Origin: a bacterium
GTDB taxonomy: Bacteria > Tectomicrobia > Entotheonellia > J063 > CAVPRW01
Reading direction: 5' to 3'
DNA: 48,255 bases
Assembly (NCBI GenBank): GCA_046727435.1
Contig: JBKPCR010000213.1
Location: 1 to 48,255, forward strand
Below are positions 9,467-19,000 of this stretch, piece by piece; the first letter of the stretch is position 1, and each line of letters begins with the position of its first letter. The notes under the pieces were generated by a model. The model saw only the letters and a program-made list of their open reading frames with translations, was not told the DNA's origin and searched no databases. A program made the position numbers and the translations under genes.

Positions 9467-10807
9467 TCAGTAGAGGTACGGCGATAAGGCGGCCCAGGCC
9501 TGCATGACATCCTGGAGGGCATCCAGGTAATCGAGCCGCACCCTGGTCCAGTCCCTGCGAATGGGCAGGAGTTCGGCGAGGCTGATATCGCCGCTGGCAT
9601 AGCGGGTCTCGGCGCTGCGCAAGACGTTCTCGGCGCGTGGTAGAACCTCGTCGCGCAGCAGCGTGGCGGCGGCAGTGGCGGTGGCCAGTGTCCGGTAGGC
9701 CGTCTGCAGCTCCTGCGCTAACGCGTTCCGCGCGGAACGGGCTCGGGCTTCGGCCGCCACAAAATCGGCCCTGGCCTCACGTATACTGCCCTGATAGCGG
9801 TTGAACAGGGGGATCGGCAGCCGCAGGCCGACATCGACCGTGTTCTCCACATCACCGACCCGTCGGTACAACAGCTCGACGCTCACATCGGGGATCCGTT
9901 GGCTGTCAGCCAGATCGATGCGGGCCCGCTGCACCGCGATGTCCGCGTCCGCGGCAGCGATAAATGGGCTTTGCTCGAGACGTGTGGCCAGCGCTTCCAG
10001 GGTCGGGAGTGCCAGCGGCCCCTCTAACGCGCCCTCCAGGGATTCCACGTGTAACGTCGGATCGCCGATCGCGGTGACCAGGGCCTCGACGGCCTGTGCA
10101 CGCCCGGACGTGGCTTGCTCCAGCGCCAAGCGGGCTCGACCCCACTCCACCTCAGCTTGGCCAACTTCCGCAGGAATGGCATCTCCAGCGGCCAGGCGTG
10201 CCTTGGCGACGGCTACCCCGTTCTCGGCGATTTGGACATCTTCAGCCCGGGCCTGGATGACGCGTTGCCAGTACAGTACGGTAGCAAAGGCGCTCTGCAC
10301 ACGCCTGCGGATCTCCAGGCGCTTCACCTCCAACTCGAGCCCCAGACGGTCCCGATCGAGCGTTTCCACACGGCGGGCGACGGCGAGTCGCTGGCCTAAA
10401 GGAGCGGGTTGACTGACGCCGACGAGATACTCTGCCCGCTCGAGGGTCTGCCCGCTGACGGGGACCGACTCGATCCGGCTCACGAGCTCAGGGTTTGGGA
10501 AGAGCCCGGCCTGCAGGGCTCTTCCTTCGGCACTCTCGACCTGGGCCTGGGCAGTGGCCAAATCAGGATGAACACGTTCAGCGAGCTCTAGAGCCTGCGG
10601 CAGCGTCAAGCGCTCGATGCTCCGCTCATGGCGCGGCGAGGCAGACGGCGACATGAGACTGGCCGCCGCCACGGGAGTGGCCATGACATGAGGCTCCGTC
10701 ACAGGCAGGGCGCGACGAGCTTGGGGAAGAAGCTCCGGTGCGGGCGTTAGGGCGCAGCCGGCCATGAGAGCAGGCAGCGTCGCGACCCACCACAGCAACG
10801 TTTTCAT
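9467..10807 (-). CDS. czcC: CzcC/TolC-family outer-membrane efflux factor
   Basis: Lipobox MAGC. QAGLFPNPEL and LPIPLFNRYQG motifs. Coupled to the RND gene. Confidence 0.85.
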   Translation of the reverse strand: MKTLLWWVATLPALMAGCALTPAPELLPQARRALPVTEPHVMATPVAAASLMSPSASPRHERSIERLTLPQALELAERVHPDLATAQAQVESAEGRALQAGLFPNPELVSRIESVPVSGQTLERAEYLVGVSQPAPLGQRLAVARRVETLDRDRLGLELEVKRLEIRRRVQSAFATVLYWQRVIQARAEDVQIAENGVAVAKARLAAGDAIPAEVGQAEVEWGRARLALEQATSGRAQAVEALVTAIGDPTLHVESLEGALEGPLALPTLEALATRLEQSPFIAAADADIAVQRARIDLADSQRIPDVSVELLYRRVGDVENTVDVGLRLPIPLFNRYQGSIREARADFVAAEARARSARNALAQELQTAYRTLATATAAATLLRDEVLPRAENVLRSAETRYASGDISLAELLPIRRDWTRVRLDYLDALQDVMQAWAALSPYLY

Positions 10808-13800
10808 CGGGGACCCCCTTCCTGAGCCATCTGCACCGGCCGGCCGAAACGCAGGTAGAGCGCTGGAACGATCAGCATATTGAGCAACATCGAGGTCAGC
10901 AGTCCGAACAGGATGACGATGGCCATCGGCGTTTGAATCTCGTTGCCGGGCTTCTCGCCGCTGATGGCCAAGGGGATCAGCGCTAACCCCGCCGCCAGGG
11001 CCGTCATCAGGATGGGGGCCAGCCGTTCCATCGCGCCGCGGAAGACGGCTTCGCGGAAATCGGTCACCCCTTCGTGTGCCTGCAAATGGCGAATGTGCGA
11101 TACGAGCATGATGCCATTGCGGGTCGCGATGCCAAACACCGTAATGAACCCGATCAACGACGCCACCGAGAGCACGCCGCCGGAGATGAAGACGCCGGCA
11201 ATGCCGCCAATGAGCGCTAGCGGCAGGTTCACCATCACGAGCACGGCATCGCGCGCGGAGCCGAAGGCAAGATGCAGGAGGAGGGCGATCCCGAGGACGA
11301 CAGCGATGCCGAGCACGCCGAGAAGACGCCCGGCCTCTTCGGCGCTCTCAAATTGCCCGCCATAAGCCACAGCATAGCCAGGCTTTTCGGCAATGATGGG
11401 ATCGACGCGTTGCTGCATATCCTTCACCACCGAGGCCACGTCGCGTCCTGCCACATTGCACATCACGACGATTTTGCGCTCCACCTGTTCGCGGCTGATG
11501 GTATTGGGCCCAGTGGTCTTGCCGACCTGCGTGAGGACTTGCAGGGGGATCTTCGCGCCATCGGGCGTGTCCACCAGGAGGTGGCCGAGCGTCTCCGGGT
11601 TCCATCCCTCAGCTTCCGCCTGGCGCACCACCAGATCGAAGGCGTATCGCCCTTCCAGGATACGCGACACGGTGACGCCTTGCAGCGCGGCTTCGAGGGT
11701 GTGGGCTACATCTTCGACCATCACCCCATACCGCGCCATGGCTTGGCGGTCGAACCGCGCGCCGAGAATCGGCACGTCGATCTGTTGCTCGACCGACACG
11801 TCCACGGCGCCGGGAACGGTGGCTACGACCTGGCGGACTTTTTCGCCAAGGGCGCGCAGGGTGTAGAGGTCCTCGCCGAAAATTTTGACGGCGATATTCG
11901 CCCGTGTGCCCGACAGCATGTGATCGATCCGGTGCGAAATCGGCTGCCCGATCGTGATGTTCGTACCGGGGATGAGCGAGAAGTCCCGACGCAGGGCATT
12001 GAGGAACTCCGTTTTGCTGCGATCTCGCATGACAAGCGACACATCGAGTTCTGCTGCTTCGACGCCTTGCGCGTGCTCGTCGAGCTCGGCGCGGCCAGTC
12101 CGACGAGCGACAGAGACCACCTCCGGATGGGCCAGTAAGGTTTTCTCGACCACGCGCCCGAGGGCATCGGATTCGGGCAAGGAGGTGCCTGGGAGCGTGA
12201 CGGCACTGATGGTCAGGGAGCCTTCGTTGAAGTCCGGCAGGAAGGCGCGGCCCAGGAAGCTGGAGGCGATCACCGCGACGCCAAGCAGGAGGATGGCCGG
12301 GATCGTGACCAGCCATGGAAACTGCAGCGAAGGGTTCAGAATGGGGGCATAGCCCGATTTCAAGACGCGGACGAGTGGCGGCTCGCGGCCCGTTCGGACG
12401 GCTTTGCTACCAGGGAGCAGAAGGTAACAGAGCACGGGGGTGACGGTCACGGCCACGGCAAGCGAGGCGAGAATCGAGACCACATAGGCGGTGCCGAGCG
12501 GCCTGAGGAGTCTCCCTTCCACCCCTGCTAGGAAGAACAGGGGGAGGAACACGAGGATGATAATCAGCGTCGCGAAGACGATCGACGACTGGATCTCGAC
12601 GCTCGCCTCATAGACCACCTGGAACACAGACCGGCGCTTGTCTGCGGGGAGCATGACGTTTTCGCGCAGCCGCCGAAAGACGTTTTCCACGTCGATCACG
12701 GCGTCGTCGACCAACGCCCCGATGGCAATGGCCATCCCGCCCAGCGTCATCGTGTTGATCGTCGCACCGAAGGCCTGCAAGGTGAGCACCGCCGTTAACA
12801 GCGACAGTGGGATCGCGGTCAGCGTGATGAAGGCGGCCCTGAGGTTGGCGAGAAAGAGGAAGACGATGGCGATGACCAAGATCCCGCCGTCACGCAGGGC
12901 ATGAAAGACGTTCTCGATGGCGATTTCGATAAAGTCCGCCTGACGAAAGACCTGTTGAATCCGCATGCCTTCGGGGAATTTCCCCTGCAGCTCAGCGAGG
13001 ACCGCCTCTAAGGTGCGCGTCAAGGTGAGCGTGTTCGCTCCGGGTTGCTTCTGGACGCCAAGGATGACCGCTGGCTGCGCATTGATGGATCCCTCGCCTC
13101 GTTTGGGGGCGGCATCGATGCGCACGGCCCCGAGGTCCGACACGCGGATGGGAATGCCGTCTACCGCCGCCACAACCGCGGCGCCGATGTCCTCGGGCGT
13201 GCGCATGCGGCCAAGGCCGGTGACCAGGTATTCCGAGCCGCCGGCGATCAAGAAGCCGGCGGAGACATTGGTGTTCGAGGCGGTGAGGGCTTGGGTGACC
13301 TGTTTGAGGGACACGCCATAGGCGCGCAGTTTGGACGGCGCCAGGATGACCTGATACTGTTTCTCCCCGCCGCCGATCGGTGTGACCTGGGACACCCCTG
13401 GCACGGAGAGGAGCCGACGGCGGAGTGTGGTTTCGGCGATGGTGCGCAGCTCGATTGGACTGTGCCGATCAGACGTCAACGCCAGGAAGAGGATCTCCCC
13501 CATGATGGACGAGATGGGGGCCAGGATGGGTCGCTCGACCCCTGGCGGGAGATCTGCCGCGATCAGGGACACCTTTTCACTGACGATCTGACGGGCCGCG
13601 TAAATGTCCATGCCCCAGTCGAACTCTACCCAGACCACGGAAATGCCCACTGCGGTCGACGAGCGCACCCGCCTCACGCTCGATGCCCCGTTCACCGCTG
13701 TTTCGATCGGGAAGGTGACCTGGCTTTCCACCTCCACCGGAGCCATGCCATGGGCCTCGGTGATGACGGTCACGGTAGGGGCCGTGAGGTCTGGAAACAC

Positions 13801-13911
13801 ATCGACCGGCATCCGACGCGCGGTGTATACGCCGATCGCAGTCAGCACAAGTGCCAGCGAGATGATCACCGCCCGGTTGCGGAGAGACCAGCGAATCACG
13901 GAATCGATCAT
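10804..13911 (-). CDS. czcA: Heavy-metal efflux RND permease (CzcA/CusA/NrsA family)
   Basis: 1035 aa. VDVFPDL, LGGMAIAIGALVDDAVIDVEN, RRTGRAE and ERLAPILMTA motifs. Metal specificity cannot be determined from the sequence. Confidence 0.93.
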   Translation of the reverse strand: MIDSVIRWSLRNRAVIISLALVLTAIGVYTARRMPVDVFPDLTAPTVTVITEAHGMAPVEVESQVTFPIETAVNGASSVRRVRSSTAVGISVVWVEFDWGMDIYAARQIVSEKVSLIAADLPPGVERPILAPISSIMGEILFLALTSDRHSPIELRTIAETTLRRRLLSVPGVSQVTPIGGGEKQYQVILAPSKLRAYGVSLKQVTQALTASNTNVSAGFLIAGGSEYLVTGLGRMRTPEDIGAAVVAAVDGIPIRVSDLGAVRIDAAPKRGEGSINAQPAVILGVQKQPGANTLTLTRTLEAVLAELQGKFPEGMRIQQVFRQADFIEIAIENVFHALRDGGILVIAIVFLFLANLRAAFITLTAIPLSLLTAVLTLQAFGATINTMTLGGMAIAIGALVDDAVIDVENVFRRLRENVMLPADKRRSVFQVVYEASVEIQSSIVFATLIIILVFLPLFFLAGVEGRLLRPLGTAYVVSILASLAVAVTVTPVLCYLLLPGSKAVRTGREPPLVRVLKSGYAPILNPSLQFPWLVTIPAILLLGVAVIASSFLGRAFLPDFNEGSLTISAVTLPGTSLPESDALGRVVEKTLLAHPEVVSVARRTGRAELDEHAQGVEAAELDVSLVMRDRSKTEFLNALRRDFSLIPGTNITIGQPISHRIDHMLSGTRANIAVKIFGEDLYTLRALGEKVRQVVATVPGAVDVSVEQQIDVPILGARFDRQAMARYGVMVEDVAHTLEAALQGVTVSRILEGRYAFDLVVRQAEAEGWNPETLGHLLVDTPDGAKIPLQVLTQVGKTTGPNTISREQVERKIVVMCNVAGRDVASVVKDMQQRVDPIIAEKPGYAVAYGGQFESAEEAGRLLGVLGIAVVLGIALLLHLAFGSARDAVLVMVNLPLALIGGIAGVFISGGVLSVASLIGFITVFGIATRNGIMLVSHIRHLQAHEGVTDFREAVFRGAMERLAPILMTALAAGLALIPLAISGEKPGNEIQTPMAIVILFGLLTSMLLNMLIVPALYLRFGRPVQMAQEGGPR

Positions 13912-13923
13912 GGCTCTTTCCTC

Positions 13924-15591
13924 TCAATGGGCATGCCCATGCGCTGGAATCGCCGCCGACACTGACGCCAGGCGAATGGCATAGGCACCTTTGGTGACCA
14001 CGCGCTCGCCCTCGGCAAGCCCCGAGAGGACCTGGACGAAGGCGCCGTCGCGAATGCCCAGCGTCAGGTCGCGCTTGGCAAAGGTCTCACCGGCAACCTG
14101 GACGAAGGCGACTGCCCTGCCGTCTTCGTCGACCAACGCAGAGACAGGCACGACCAACGCCTCTTCAACCTGCGCCGTCTCCACATACACATTCAGCGCC
14201 ATGCCGATGCGCAGGCGCCCATCAGGATTGGGAACCTCATACACCAGGGGAAGGGTGCGGGTTTTGGGATCGACGGTAGTCCCGAGGTAGACGAGACGAC
14301 CTCCGCCGTTGCTGAGAATGGGCGCAAAGGTGCCTGGCGCGTCCGAGGTTTCGTAGGTCGCTCCGCGGGACGACCCGAGGCGGCTGAGGTCCCCCTCGGG
14401 GATCTGGGCTTCGATCAGGACACCCTCGGGGTTGAGAATGGTGAACACGGCCCCGTCCGAGGGCACATGCTCACCGACGGTCGCGCTGACGGCGATGATG
14501 ACACCAGCGATGGGGGCCTTCAGTTCGACCGCGGGCATCCCATGGCTCAGGTCGACCGATCGCGGGCGGTCCGCGAGCTGCTTCTTGGCTCTCTCATAGG
14601 TCTTTCGCAGCGCCTCAGCTGCGGTCAGGTCGGCCTCGGCCTTGCGCTGATCAAACTCTGCTTCCTCCAGTTCTCGTGCCGACTTGGCGTTCTGTTCGCG
14701 CAGTGCGCGCATGCGGCGCAAGACCTGCTCGGCTTGATTGAAGGCCACGCGCGCTCTGATGGCGTCGGCCTCGGCGGCAGCGGCTTTCACAGTCAATTCC
14801 ACGTCAAGGGCCTGGAGCTGCTGCTGGCTGCTAAGGAACGTCACCAGATCGGAACCTGCCAGGTGCGGTTGCACCATCGCGAGCACCTGCCCGGCCTGCA
14901 CGCGAGATCCGAGGGACGGCAGGGAGGCGCCAGGTGGAGACATGAGATGCCCGGCGATTGGCGGCGTCACGGCGGCGCGATGGCCTGGTCGAACGGACAC
15001 GACACCGGCGAGTCGGAGCCGTTCAATCACCTGTCGCCTGTGCACTGCCTCGGTTTTCGTAGATAATTTCCATTGCTGCTCTTTGAGAAAGCTGATGCCT
15101 TCGGGTGCGGCAGGGTCTGGGGCCATCGCCATCTCCTCGCGCGTGGCGAAGACGGTCAAGGGGGGCAACTCGACGATGTACTCCTGGCCCGCGGAGGGAA
15201 TGCGGAGAGACACGATCCACTCGCCAGGCCTCGGAAAGGTGAGCTCTGGGATATAAATGCCATCGCGTGCGGGGGTGGGCTCGACGTGGGTGATCGGCGC
15301 CTCGGAATCACGGCGGAGGATGAACGTCAGGGGCCCCTCCCGCCGGGGTTCGAGGGTCGTCAGATCGGTGACATGCGTGATGAATTTGGTCGGGGTATTG
15401 ACCACGATCAACCGGTATTCGAGGAAAATCTCAAATCGGTCACTCCAGACTGTCACCTGGGCCGTTTTCTCTTCCGCTTCCGTTTCCGCGCCCTCTTGGG
15501 AGGTCTCTAGGCGGCCACACGCGGCAACTAGGAGCGCGCAGAGTATGATCCAGGCCCGGAGATTCACGATGCTGATAGGGGTGAGGCTCAC
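13924..15591 (-). CDS. czcB: RND periplasmic adaptor (CzcB-like) lipoprotein
   Basis: LKAPIAG, VDPKTRT, LRIGM and GLAEGERVV motifs. C-terminal HGHAH. Lipobox VAAC. Confidence 0.9.
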   Translation of the reverse strand: MSLTPISIVNLRAWIILCALLVAACGRLETSQEGAETEAEEKTAQVTVWSDRFEIFLEYRLIVVNTPTKFITHVTDLTTLEPRREGPLTFILRRDSEAPITHVEPTPARDGIYIPELTFPRPGEWIVSLRIPSAGQEYIVELPPLTVFATREEMAMAPDPAAPEGISFLKEQQWKLSTKTEAVHRRQVIERLRLAGVVSVRPGHRAAVTPPIAGHLMSPPGASLPSLGSRVQAGQVLAMVQPHLAGSDLVTFLSSQQQLQALDVELTVKAAAAEADAIRARVAFNQAEQVLRRMRALREQNAKSARELEEAEFDQRKAEADLTAAEALRKTYERAKKQLADRPRSVDLSHGMPAVELKAPIAGVIIAVSATVGEHVPSDGAVFTILNPEGVLIEAQIPEGDLSRLGSSRGATYETSDAPGTFAPILSNGGGRLVYLGTTVDPKTRTLPLVYEVPNPDGRLRIGMALNVYVETAQVEEALVVPVSALVDEDGRAVAFVQVAGETFAKRDLTLGIRDGAFVQVLSGLAEGERVVTKGAYAIRLASVSAAIPAHGHAH

Positions 15592-15756
15592 CGCTGTGTT
15601 CTCCTCTGCTCTTGGGCTCTATCCCGGTGACCACACGTGGTGTTTGGGATGGGCGCTCTTCATTGGGGCATCAAGAGATGCGACTAACCGGCAATCGACG
15701 CCCACCACGCGCGAGGGACGGCTGGTGGTGTGCCGATCAGCGAAAGGGGCGAGCGC

Positions 15757-16146
15757 CTACGAGAGGAGAGAACAGTGTTGGAGGAAGAGTGGGGCAGGCG
15801 GGGGAGGATGTTCGAGGATTTGACGATACACAGGAGTGCTACCTACGAGAGGCTCTGTAGCCGCCCACGGCAAGCCATGAATGGCCACCAGGGCCATCGA
15901 GTGCGGTGGGGCGTCTGAGCCTGCTGTGGTGGTATACCACTCGAAGTGACAGTGGGTGTCCGCGTCATGATGAGAGGGATCAAGTACGCCTGATGGCTCA
16001 TGCGTGTTCTCATCACCGACGACAGGAAAGGCGCCTAGATGGGGGATGAAGACAGAACCCCGGTGTCCGCCGCCCCTGTGGTCAACGACGACGTGGGTGG
16101 AGGTCAAAAGGAAAGCCATCATCACCACAAGGCTCGGAACGCGCAT
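15757..16146 (-). CDS. Small His-rich exported protein heading the czc operon (CzcI/DUF2946-like)
   Basis: Hydrophobic N-terminus, HHDADTHCH, C-terminal HPPPPAPLFLQHCSLLS. First gene of the operon. Confidence 0.65.
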   Translation of the reverse strand: MRVPSLVVMMAFLLTSTHVVVDHRGGGHRGSVFIPHLGAFPVVGDENTHEPSGVLDPSHHDADTHCHFEWYTTTAGSDAPPHSMALVAIHGLPWAATEPLVGSTPVYRQILEHPPPPAPLFLQHCSLLS

Positions 16147-16153
16147 AGCATGT

Positions 16154-16183
16154 AGAATAGCCGAGCGATAGTCTGGAAGTCAA
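16154..16183 (-). promoter_or_regulatory. Sigma70-type promoter giving a leaderless transcript
   Basis: TTGACT (16183-16178), 18-bp spacer, TATTCT (16159-16154), then 7 nt to the A of ATG 16146. No SD sequence. Confidence 0.6.
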
Positions 16184-16240
16184 GAATCGGGATGGCCGGG
16201 TAGTGACTCAGTTTGAAATTTCAGGCTTGGCGGACGACAG

Positions 16241-16432
16241 ATGGACGAATAAGCCCGCGCGACTGAGCCAATCCTCTGCGAAATCAAGAATGGCTGGGCA
16301 GTCTTAGGACATGGATGGGCGGTTCATGGACGCACGAAAGAGCAGGCTCTCCAAAAATATCATGAAGCGGAAGCGAAGCACCGTGAGATTGACCAGCGCC
16401 CGTTTTGGCATGAACAGCTTCGACAAGTCTGA
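16241..16432 (+). pseudogene. Small ORF with an early stop, weakly HicB-like
   Basis: MDE*ARATEPILCEIKNGWAVLGHGWAVHGRTKEQALQKYHEAEAKH... The GxTxEQAL motif resembles the HicB N-terminal domain. Confidence 0.3.
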
Positions 16433-16843
16433 GCGAGATATGCTACCCTCATTGGAAGGGATCAGAAATCGATAGGACAAACGAGGTATCCGGGAACCTT
16501 GTCCACGGATGTGAACGGTTTATTCTGCAAATCCCTCAACGCTACTCATGCTCAGCGCCTATGAGCCGAGCCAGATAGCCGCGTGGAGGGAACCACATTG
16601 TAGGATTTGCAGGAAGGCTGTCCTCAGGCGTCTCCCGAATACGCAGGCCGTCTGCGTGAGCTATCGGCGGCATCGCTGTGATGACGCGTATCCGGCCATC
16701 TCTTGGGTCATCATGGGATACGCGCTGTGGCGTTGGCATGGAATATGCTGCTCAAGGGAGTTATATCTGTACTCGTTCAACTCTGGCCGTATCGCAGTGA
16801 TGAAAGCCCGGTAGGCATCCGGGCCACGTGAAAGGGCGGAATT

Positions 16844-17320
16844 ATGATCACCAAACATGTCGTCTGGCGGTGTCTGTGCATGGTGCTGTTGCTGGTGTCG
16901 ATGGTCGCAACCCCCGCCGTGGCCGACCCGGGGAAAGATGAGGCGCACGGCAAAGAGGGAAAGGGGAAACACGAGAAGCACCGGTCGAAGCCGAAAGACT
17001 GGGAGTCTCACGGGTATGACGGCTACTTCCACGAGCATGGGTATACCACGCTCGGCATTCCCCCAGGTCATCTGCCCCCGCCCGGCAAATGCCGCCTCTG
17101 GTATCCCGACCGGCCGCCGGGTCATCAACCGCCTCCAGAGAGCTGTGGGCGCCTGCGCGCGCACGCGCCTGTTGGCGGTTGGCTCATCCACCGTCCCAAG
17201 CACGAACCTCACTACGTGGATGTCTCCGTGTATGATGCGTATCAGCCCGGCATCGTCATCACCATCGGCATCTTTGACGTGGATACCGGCGCCTTCTTGC
17301 GCCATCTCAGACCACGCTAA
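16844..17320 (+). CDS. Secreted His/Lys-rich, Pro-rich hypothetical protein (passenger)
   Basis: Signal peptide ending AVA. HGKEGKGKHEKH. IPPGHLPPPGKCRLWYPDRPPGHQPPPESC motif. Confidence 0.8.
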   Translation: MITKHVVWRCLCMVLLLVSMVATPAVADPGKDEAHGKEGKGKHEKHRSKPKDWESHGYDGYFHEHGYTTLGIPPGHLPPPGKCRLWYPDRPPGHQPPPESCGRLRAHAPVGGWLIHRPKHEPHYVDVSVYDAYQPGIVITIGIFDVDTGAFLRHLRPR

Positions 17321-17714
17321 CATCTGGCTGGGCACTGAACGAAGCATGACTGACGCACTTCCTCCATACCAGCGTGAGCGCGGCGACCCCCATACCCACG
17401 CGTGCCACTGCGAGCAACTCAGTAACCAGCCCTACATAGCCATGCGAATGTAGGAAGTCCCTCACCGCCTTATTGCACCAACCCATGCATGTGAGCTAAG
17501 ATAAATTTCAAACTGAGTCACTACCGATGGCCGCATCAACGTTTACCCACCCTCCTCAGTGCCCACGAGAGTTTCGAGGACTCGCGGATGAAGGCTTCTC
17601 CGATGGAATTGGAGAAATTTTGTACGCTCGTGTGACCCGCCCCATGTGCGTGAGGTCACATGCGTCCGTGGCTGCCATTCTGCGGCATTGTGTAGCGTCT
17701 GCTGCACGTCTGCT

Positions 17715-17820
17715 GAGGGCCACATAGCGGTGAATTTGGCTGGTGAGATGCGCAAGGTACGGCAGATGTCCGCCACGGTCAGACGTCGATCCCCATAGAG
17801 CGTGTAGGCCATCTGCACCC
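17715..17820 (-). pseudogene. C-terminal HTH remnant of a serine resolvase/invertase
   Basis: VQMAYTLYGDRRLTVADICRTLRISPAK, then IHRYV in a shifted frame, resembling the resolvase HTH ending ISR.TLYRY. Confidence 0.55.
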
Positions 17821-18087
17821 GTGGTTCCTCTGGTTGGATTTGAGGCAGAGTCTCTGTTGCGTGCTTCCCCAGACGGGAGCGACAAACGGTGGTGCCTCGG
17901 CGCACCCAGATCCTCCTGTGGAGAGGCTGGTGGCACGAGCATCACTCGATCTTCTTCATCCATGGCCCGGCACCCAGTATCGCCATGTTCATCGACGGTG
18001 GTGAGCGGAACTCATGACCTACTGTTGGGGAGTTGCTTGTGTAGTCCCGCGAGTCGGCTCGAATGGCAGACAGGCCGTCACCACGCT

Positions 18088-18315
18088 TCAATGCCGAGAT
18101 CGACGCCGGAACAGGGCGTACAATGGGCCGAGCCACACGGCGAGCAATCCCAGATGCTTGATCACCACCAAAATAATCACGCCCGACACGACTGTGGCTG
18201 ATAGGGCCGTATGCGGCAACACGTAGGACAGGATGATTGCGTGACTGGCGATGAGCACGACGACTCCCACCGACAGCCTCAACGGGCGCGTCAGCAGGCG
18301 GCGATGTCCTTTCAT
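18088..18315 (-). CDS. Small membrane protein
   Basis: 75 aa with two hydrophobic segments, directly downstream of the methyltransferase. Confidence 0.55.
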   Translation of the reverse strand: MKGHRRLLTRPLRLSVGVVVLIASHAIILSYVLPHTALSATVVSGVIILVVIKHLGLLAVWLGPLYALFRRRSRH

Positions 18316-18346
18316 GGATTCGATCCTTTGGTGGCAATGGTCGTGA

Positions 18347-19000
18347 TCATGGGCAGCATGGGGCCGTCGCGAGAACAAACTGCAAGTCGCGCATGCCCAC
18401 CGCGCCGCTCTCAACCATGTTCAAGCCCGCTTCGCTGAGCAGAGCGATCATGTCAGGAAGGTTGACATGACCATGGCGGTGAACGTGTGCGAAAAGGCCT
18501 CTCCTTTGCCGTGCAGAGCCTCCGAAGTCAACGGCAAGCACTCGCCCGCCCGGCTTCAGAACCCTTCGGATCTCACAGGCGCACTGTTGGCGAGCTTTAC
18601 GGGGCAAATGATGAAGCATCACCGTGGTCAGGACAGCGTCAAAATGCGCAGCGGGAAACGGCAGCGCCTCGCCAACCGCATGTTTGAGAACCACCTCGAC
18701 CCCTGCCTTTCCCGCCTTCCTACGCGCCCTGGCAATCATCTCCGGCGATGCGTCGATCCCATCTACCGTGCCTGTTGGCCCGACACACCGTTTGGCAGCG
18801 ATCGCCAGGCTTCCTGTCCCGCAGCCCACATCTAGGACGGACTCGCCAGGTTGAAGGCGAGCCAGGCGGACCACCTTCTCCCGAAAGACCCGCTCCCGAC
18901 CGAGCGTGACCAGCCAGACCAGCAGGTCATAGCGAGCGGCCGAGCGCAGGACCGAGCCAGTCGTGCTGGGCGTTCGATGCAGATCCTCCATCGTCATCAC
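18347..19000 (-). CDS. Class I SAM-dependent methyltransferase (UbiE-like)
   Basis: VLDVGCGTG, LPFPAAHFD and RVLKPGG motifs. AAGGAGG RBS. Confidence 0.92.
   Translation of the reverse strand: MMTMEDLHRTPSTTGSVLRSAARYDLLVWLVTLGRERVFREKVVRLARLQPGESVLDVGCGTGSLAIAAKRCVGPTGTVDGIDASPEMIARARRKAGKAGVEVVLKHAVGEALPFPAAHFDAVLTTVMLHHLPRKARQQCACEIRRVLKPGGRVLAVDFGGSARQRRGLFAHVHRHGHVNLPDMIALLSEAGLNMVESGAVGMRDLQFVLATAPCCP

Follow-up and report, generated by a model that had tools for sequence, protein, structure and literature searches.

The window analyzed here, a stretch of 48,255 nucleotides of bacterial DNA, contains a 1327-bp segment that is bounded by inverted repeats and lies beside an efflux operon. 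Did this segment move there as a unit and, if so, what moved it and where did its genes come from? The original prediction, made from the sequence alone, described a mobile insertion cassette (MIC) with IS1-type ends, carrying a gene and mobilized in trans. We examined the ends, the interior, the cargo and the insertion site in turn.

Perfect repeats and an exact duplication delimit the element

Two exact copies of the 23-mer GGTAGTGACTCAGTTTGAAATTT are present in the 48-kb window, one at 16199-16221 on the plus strand and one at 17503-17525 on the minus strand, with 0 mismatches. When the window was shuffled 100 times with dinucleotide composition preserved, none of the shuffles gave two matches to the 23-mer, with up to 3 mismatches allowed. 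The octamer GATGGCCG adjoins both outer ends of the repeats, at 16191-16198 and 17526-17533. Both features have clear limits: the inverted repeats stop at 23 bp, base 24 being C in one arm and A in the other, and the duplication stops at 8 bp, the bases beyond the octamer being unlike on the two sides. From repeat tip to repeat tip the element measures 1327 bp. Perfect 23-bp repeats, an exact 8-bp duplication and this same length had been described in the original prediction, and all three were reproduced. The G+C content of the interior is 57.0%, compared to 62.5% for the flanks. The element is composed as follows:

16191..16198, no strand: target-site duplication, left copy, 8 bp, GATGGCCG (read and recomputed)
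16199..16221, plus strand: left terminal inverted repeat, 23 bp, with a GGTAGTG tip of IS1-family type (0 mismatches; 0 expected by chance)
16241..16432, plus strand: small passenger gene with an in-frame TAA at codon 4, 16250-16252 (homolog alignment)
16482..16538, plus strand: solo copy of the ~55-bp repeat family IR2 (nhmmer, E 1e-15)
16844..17320, plus strand: intact passenger gene, 158 aa (544 homologs at E <= 0.001)
17503..17525, minus strand: right terminal inverted repeat, 23 bp, a perfect match to the left repeat (repeat scan)
17526..17533, no strand: target-site duplication, right copy, 8 bp, GATGGCCG (read and recomputed)

A search of positions 15500-18500 against Rfam matched no family at E <= 1.

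The window's own genome (6.7 Mb, 81% complete) is a fragmented metagenomic bin of 555 contigs, a setting in which an inverted repeat might arise from misassembly or simply by chance. We judge there to be almost no prospect of either here. The shuffles gave 0 chance matches, and the same end recurs with 8-bp duplications family-wide (see below). Additionally, contigs from two further soil runs (X3, record 19; X4, record 26) span the filled left junction with 0 differences, although these runs are possibly not independent of the source sample.

The element lies upstream of an efflux operon

The insertion is intergenic and no gene is interrupted. It lies 45 bp upstream of the ATG (16146) of the first ORF of the efflux operon, and to the right of the element are a CDF transporter and a TetR regulator. 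The operon and the promoter-like site that precedes it are:

9467..16146, minus strand: efflux operon (Pfam; NCBIfam)
15757-16146, minus strand: His-rich 129-aa ORF, first of the operon, ATG at 16146
13924-15591, minus strand: membrane-fusion protein (Pfam)
10804-13911, minus strand: CusA/CzcA-family RND pump (NCBIfam TIGR00914, 797 bits, cut-off 701)
9467-10807, minus strand: outer-membrane factor (Pfam)
16154..16183, minus strand: promoter-like hexamer pair TTGACT, 18 nt, TATTCT, facing the efflux operon (consensus match 9/12)

The left end of the element is 15 bp upstream of the -35 hexamer of this pair. This agrees with the distance originally predicted, but the site is only consensus-like, and no enrichment of such promoter-like pairs was seen in the region (2 vs. 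1.2 expected). Placed directly upstream of a CusA/CzcA-type operon, the insertion could rewire the promoter region.

The interior encodes no recognizable transposase

To analyze the coding capacity of the interior, we compared its ORFs to Pfam and NCBIfam, and no transposase family was matched. InsAB had been suggested as the query for a tblastn of the interior. We instead used six cognate transposases, taken from elements that share the 23-bp end (described below), together with six IS1 DDE segments from the window's own genome; neither set gave anything convincing. With the cognate transposases one weak match recurred, 34-35 aa long with E values of 0.03-1.9 in a 1327-nt database, at element positions 1088-1189. 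Its first third is an alternative frame of the passenger gene's conserved 3' end, its DNA is equally conserved in loci without the repeats, and the remainder scores low, so we dropped the match as a transposase remnant. No other portion of the ~290-aa transposase was detectable in the interior by Pfam, NCBIfam or tblastn. The absence of a transposase inside the element, part of the original prediction, was therefore upheld.

The position of the weak match, near the right end where autonomous members of the family have the C-terminus of their transposase, would suit a decayed autonomous IS, the interior of which is a degenerate transposase gene broken by secondary insertions, without captured cargo. 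That reading is highly improbable given what the interior does contain. Apart from the origin of the match itself, a stretch of ~870 bp (16496-17365) has homologs elsewhere in loci that lack the repeats, and another conserved gene occupies 16241-16432.

The ends are those of a family of single-ORF elements, probably of IS1 type

Members of the IS1 family end in GGnnnTG-tipped inverted repeats of ~20-25 bp and produce target duplications of 8-9 bp. The tip of the element, GGTAGTG, and its 8-bp duplication fit both of these features. A scan for GGTAGTGNNTCAGTTTGAA in one genome per species returned at least 129 stretches across many phyla; Acidobacteriota, Pseudomonadota, Verrucomicrobiota, Chloroflexota and others are among the matches listed. 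In 23 of the 80 loci that were fetched, a homolog of one ~290-320-aa transposase is encoded within 2 kb of the repeat, often reaching up to it.

The first 19 positions of the 23-mer, with two positions free, bound autonomous elements such as L139, which at 1085 bp is the smallest member and contains the transposase alone. Four longer members (L103/104, L099/100, L084/085 and L092/093; 2066-4135 bp) combine the transposase with passengers such as SocA_Panacea and P63C. One end pair of 2929 bp has only a transposase fragment, beside an HTH-IrrE gene, while two others, L082 (1434 bp) and L144 (1905 bp, P63C cargo), are without a transposase. Exact 8-bp duplications were found for 8 of the 10 complete end pairs that could be delimited.

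The associated transposases are single ORFs of 288-319 codons (stop to stop), with no insA/insB' -1 frameshift pair. The Pfam model DDE_Tnp_IS1 (PF03400) scored just above its cut-off of 24.1 bits in five of six transposases (24.7-35.4 bits). The NCBIfam model 'IS1 family transposase' was the best match in all four transposases compared to it, with scores of 52-65 bits that lie below the 100-bit cut-off. The fit to the IS1 models is weak in both cases. Plasmid homologs of 54-60% identity carry the depositors' label 'IS1 family transposase' in three of the four records at that identity.

IS1595-family elements also have GG-starting ends, 8-bp duplications, one ORF and passenger-carrying forms, and the ends could on these features be assigned to that family, or to another that duplicates 8 bp. 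We regard this assignment as very unlikely. A scan of the transposases against the whole Pfam library returned DDE_Tnp_IS1 and, more weakly, DDE_Tnp_IS240, with no IS1595 model at E <= 0.001, and IS1 is the name given by both the best NCBIfam match and the depositors of the homologs. The IS1-type ends of the original prediction are supported, as elsewhere the same end delimits autonomous single-ORF elements probably of the IS1 family.

The window's own genome has nine DDE matches of the classical IS1 type, but their ends agree in the 7-base tip only, or in 15 of 21 bases at best. The classical two-ORF IS1-like elements of this genome and of G001, a sister species of the same genus (95% complete), begin with GGTAGTG, GGTAATG or GGTGGTG.

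Short elements share the left end of the cassette

The 23-mer, with 0 or 1 mismatch, is found at three further places in the window's genome, in each case as the left end of a MITE. These three MITEs are 113-114 bp long and each has its own exact 8-bp direct repeat (CGCCCTTG, CACGTCAG and CACGCATC). Their right end has only the 12-base tip in common with the left end, while both ends of the element in the window carry the full 23-mer. For one of the three (C143), the flanks are joined in the sister species G001 (85% and 82% identity), with a single octamer CATGCACC and no MITE, and thus represent an empty site. G001 has its own copies of the end at other sites.

When up to 3 mismatches were allowed, 9 of 61 genomes, counting that of the window, contained the end, mostly as part of short elements. 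The end found in G009, with 2 mismatches, adjoins a transposase gene. In G004, repeat-rich regions contain ten copies of the end, and no transposase was found in them. The end family was active in the past in this genus. It comprises IS, passenger-carrying IS, cassette and MITE forms, and the element in the window therefore counts among its cassettes without a transposase.

The cargo is a mosaic

The original prediction gave the cassette a single passenger gene. One intact conserved gene (16844-17320) is indeed present, but the cargo also includes a gene broken by a stop codon and a solo repeat. Seven metagenome loci hold the 158-aa gene, with 67-87% identity, without the 23-bp repeats. The homology of the cassette to these repeat-less loci is restricted to about 16496-17365, and the small gene is absent from all seven, as well as from all other fetched loci. 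Because the small gene is unlinked elsewhere and the homology is limited in this way, the cargo is a mosaic of an intact 158-aa gene, a small gene cut short by an early stop codon and a solo repeat.

The 158-aa protein begins with a hydrophobic, signal-like helix, followed by a charged linker of low complexity and a conserved C-terminal domain of ~85 aa, in which two Cys are invariant in the alignment of homologs. We read the hydrophobic helix, which ends AVA/D, as a signal peptide, and the protein is thus predicted to be secreted. AlphaFold2 gave a mean pLDDT of 77, with blocks from residue 61 onward scoring 82-96. Among 28 aligned members, the family of this protein matched no Pfam family, and the protein had no PDB match by sequence and no Foldseek match at E <= 0.001. 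The JGI name 'Ni/Co efflux regulator RcnB' is attached to 2 of the 120 homologs listed. This name could not be reproduced: 0 of the 28 aligned members match an RcnB Pfam model at E <= 0.05, and the NCBIfam CigR model scores far below its cut-off (E 0.0086, 16 bits vs. a cut-off of 78).

The small gene at 16241-16432 has 21 homologs of 62-97% identity. The relatives are 59-81 aa long, and the gene in the window spans ~63 codons. The relatives begin MDE(E/D)A..., with Glu or Asp at the fourth position; in the window TAA takes the place of this codon 4, and the gene reads M D E stop. The gene is 95% identical to its homolog P0121, with one TAA inside, and its bases occur without difference in contigs of two other runs. 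It is probably a pseudogene.

To place the cargo among related genomes, we searched 61 of them for both genes. The 158-aa gene occurs in two (G000 and G008) and the small gene in one (G000 only), and neither was found in the sister species G001. Judged by sequence comparison, the cargo is foreign DNA, because it is rare among the 61 genomes and absent in G001, has repeat-less loci elsewhere and is lower in G+C than its surroundings.

A second repeat family encloses other genes

The solo repeat in the cargo belongs to IR2, a ~55-bp family unrelated to the 23-bp ends, with 38 copies in the window's genome (nhmmer) and many in G001. The copy in the cassette (16482-16538) is about 305 bp upstream of the intact passenger gene, and a weak IR2 copy occupies the same relative place in the metagenome locus L200. 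We examined eight inverted IR2 pairs with spacings of 0.44-2.2 kb. When the cargo ORFs of five pairs were compared to Pfam, different genes were found in each and no transposase family was matched. The matches were PAP2/vanadium-chloroperoxidase-like, DUF3466, ABC substrate-binding, pentapeptide and GH39-like, mostly exported or periplasmic protein families. Six of the eight pairs have flanking direct repeats of 7-10 bp. No empty sites of IR2 cassettes were found in G001, and no enzyme associated with the IR2 pairs was found.

As a separate observation, G001 contains a homologous IR2 cassette with the ABC-binding-protein gene in a different context.

Since one IR2 end still lies upstream of the 158-aa gene, this gene may formerly have been an IR2 cassette gene. 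The shuffling would then have had two tiers, the gene being later captured between IS1-type ends and exported to a new site. We offer this only as a tentative proposal that is rather unlikely to be correct. Should IR2 pairs be a new class of mobile gene cassette driven by a putative enzyme, this would be the real novelty of the locus.

Searches for a partner, an empty site and a second copy

A search with the 23-mer had been expected to reveal an autonomous partner and other end pairs with different cargo. The second part of this expectation was realized by L082 and L144, which lack a transposase; the first part was not, as the window's own assembly revealed no autonomous partner. Using tblastn with the six cognate transposases, we detected no cognate transposase in this assembly of 555 contigs and 81% completeness, with no match at E <= 1e-10. 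The best matches were 24-35% identical and were all other IS1-like genes, with identities of ~50% occurring in fragments of 24-37 aa. ISs are frequently missing from assemblies. Copies of the transposase in G001, G007 and G009 look decayed, being split into pieces or interrupted by internal stops, and a search for their second end found none.

The empty-site allele that had been anticipated, with a single GATGGCCG, was not found in 20 relatives, in metagenome contigs or in four soil runs. A DNA search of the 20 relatives matched neither flank, and no homologs of the two flanking ORFs (15757-16146 and 17556-17963) were found there. The 24-mer of the left flank had 0 exact occurrences in the metagenome contigs. 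The contigs of the four soil runs, which show presence and not absence, did not contain the joint 16198/17534, and the right junction was not bridged among the pieces listed from them. The cassette was not found again at any other site. The case for its movement as a unit therefore depends on the duplication and on how the family behaves.

Probable movement of the cassette as a unit

A history without any joint movement would require solo ends or MITEs to have inserted separately on either side of resident DNA. In its favor, MITEs with this end are present in the genome, and neither a second cassette copy nor an empty site was found. However, two insertions should each have left a separate duplication, while here the same octamer lies at both outer ends, with a probability by chance of about 1 in 65,536. 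Additionally, neither enclosed gene was detected in the sister species and the interior is lower in G+C than the flanks, and the MITEs of this genome have an asymmetric right end with the 12-base tip while the cassette ends both carry the full 23-mer. We therefore give very little weight to two independent insertions.

The 1327-bp segment is very probably an MIC, a non-autonomous derivative of the IS1 family moved by a transposase acting in trans, because it has the ends of an IS family, an 8-bp duplication and passenger genes but no transposase. The original reading as a mobile insertion cassette is in this way supported by the autonomous IS1-type family with the same ends, by other transposase-less end pairs and by sibling MITEs with 8-bp duplications. 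That the cassette itself was mobilized in trans we infer, and the sibling MITE C143, with its empty site in the sister species, lends indirect support.

The cassette retains both 23-bp ends, which the DDE transposase of the family would recognize, while encoding none itself. A single-ORF IS1-family transposase from an autonomous relative then in the cell would have bound both ends, and the unit would have been inserted into the intergenic octamer GATGGCCG at a staggered 8-bp cut, the repair of which would have produced the duplication. Deletion and replacement in a passenger-carrying IS, or recombination between copies, are candidate routes by which the cargo may have come between the two ends. 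The exact ends and duplication suggest that the insertion was recent.

Comparison with known systems

As defined in PMC3129680, MICs are elements with IS-type terminal repeats around passenger genes and no transposase, with a duplication of the parent's length and a related IS as the presumed mobilizer. Described examples are MIC231 of the Bacillus cereus group, the qnrD 'mic' of Proteeae and the Tn3-derived elements of Xanthomonas (PMC3129680, PMC3913671, PMC4337579, PMC4133298). The cassette is like these in its IS-type ends, its passengers, the absence of a transposase and a duplication of the length typical of the parent family. It differs in its parent, here a single-ORF IS1-type group as opposed to IS231/IS4 or Tn3 for MIC231 and the others. 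Its cargo is also a mosaic of an intact gene, a gene with a nonsense mutation and a solo IR2 end, and its mobilization in trans is presumed from sequence.

With the single-ORF branch of IS1, the cassette shares the GGnnnTG tip, repeats of ~20-23 bp, the 8-bp duplication and the company of passenger-carrying members (1085-4135 bp), but the element in the window is without a transposase and is thus a derivative and not an IS. The branch itself departs from classical IS1, which has the insA/insB' frameshift pair, in that the associated transposases are one ~290-aa ORF that scores below the NCBIfam IS1 cut-off. We take this passenger-carrying branch of 'transporter IS' to be the 'ISMhu11-like' subgroup of ISfinder; a literature search for the word 'ISMhu11' found nothing.

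MITEs resemble the cassette in non-autonomy, ends and 8-bp duplication, and three MITEs in the same genome share its left end. MITEs are, however, short and non-coding, while the cassette is 1327 bp long and contains genes. Composite transposons likewise carry passengers between IS-derived ends, but in these a complete IS copy at each end provides the transposase, whereas the cassette is bounded by bare 23-bp ends.

Elements of this kind escape gene-based annotation, yet carry genes between genomes. The cassette is a concrete, datable gene import by a transposase-less vehicle, with an end family that spans many phyla of soil bacteria. It is a fresh example of the already known MIC type, and the known workings of such elements are unchanged by it.

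Activity and cargo of the cassette's end family

The genome containing the window (G000) carries a 113-bp MITE at C143:5894-6022 (L005 1493-1621) whose left end is that of the cassette and which lies between two copies of CACGCATC. The sister species G001 has one CATGCACC and lacks the MITE at C8:168285-168291 (L229 about 2293-2300), a clean empty site. Thus, the end family of the cassette was once active in the genus. Elsewhere, passengers of this IS family (L099/L100, L092/L093, L144, L130/L131) include SocA_Panacea antitoxin-like, P63C-domain and HTH-IrrE (Peptidase_M78) genes, which points to cargo biased to toxin-antitoxin or phage-related genes.

Within the cassette, positions 16241-16432 of the window hold a conserved small gene whose relatives are 59-81 aa long. 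Its codon 4 is TAA, a position at which each of the 12 relatives in the alignment encodes Glu, Asp or some other amino acid; the closest, P0121, is 97% identical and intact.

To the left of the cassette, one contig from the soil run X2 joins 15281 to 16089. The 807 bp missing between them span most of the 129-aa ORF and the 5' portion of the efflux operon's membrane-fusion gene. Compared with the window, this contig has 13 differences in its left part and 0 in its right part, suggesting a variant or paralogous arrangement adjoining the cassette.

A variant end, GGTAGTGGCTCACTTTCAAATTT, occurs in ten copies in the class-level relative G004, where an IS1-type DDE match is absent. These ends sit inside five internally repetitive regions of 6-7 kb that resemble one another (L053-L057; G004:C1 around 1.84, 2.48, 2.56, 3.07 and 3.19 Mb).

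A second repeat family and classical IS1 elements

A second repeat of ~55 bp, IR2, is present in 38 copies in G000. It starts with TGGTGT(A/G)TCCGCGAATC and ends with TTATTCTGCAAAA.

Locations of IR2
Window 16482-16538, IR2 copy
G000 C256:6446-8342
G000 C266:46-1403
G000 C218:932-2115
G000 C304:1326-3569
G000 C303:8037-9318
G000 C89:9003-9443
G001:C14 (L063 1495-2821)
G001:C9 (L236 1499-2712)

Inverted IR2 pairs enclose single, mutually unrelated genes, and direct repeats of 7-10 bp flank six of eight pairs. The cargo of five of the eight gave no Pfam match to a transposase, a search for an enzyme associated with the pairs found none, and comparison with G001 yielded no empty site. The IR2 pairs may be a further family of gene cassettes without a transposase.

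The classical IS1 DDE domain has nine matches in G000 (C210, C77, C39, C49, C553, C318, C50, C355 and C510), several with internal stops. Among them are ~880-910-bp elements with GGTAATG/GGTAGTG ends. Together, the nine matches and these ends indicate at least two IS1-type lineages in G000 besides that of the cassette.
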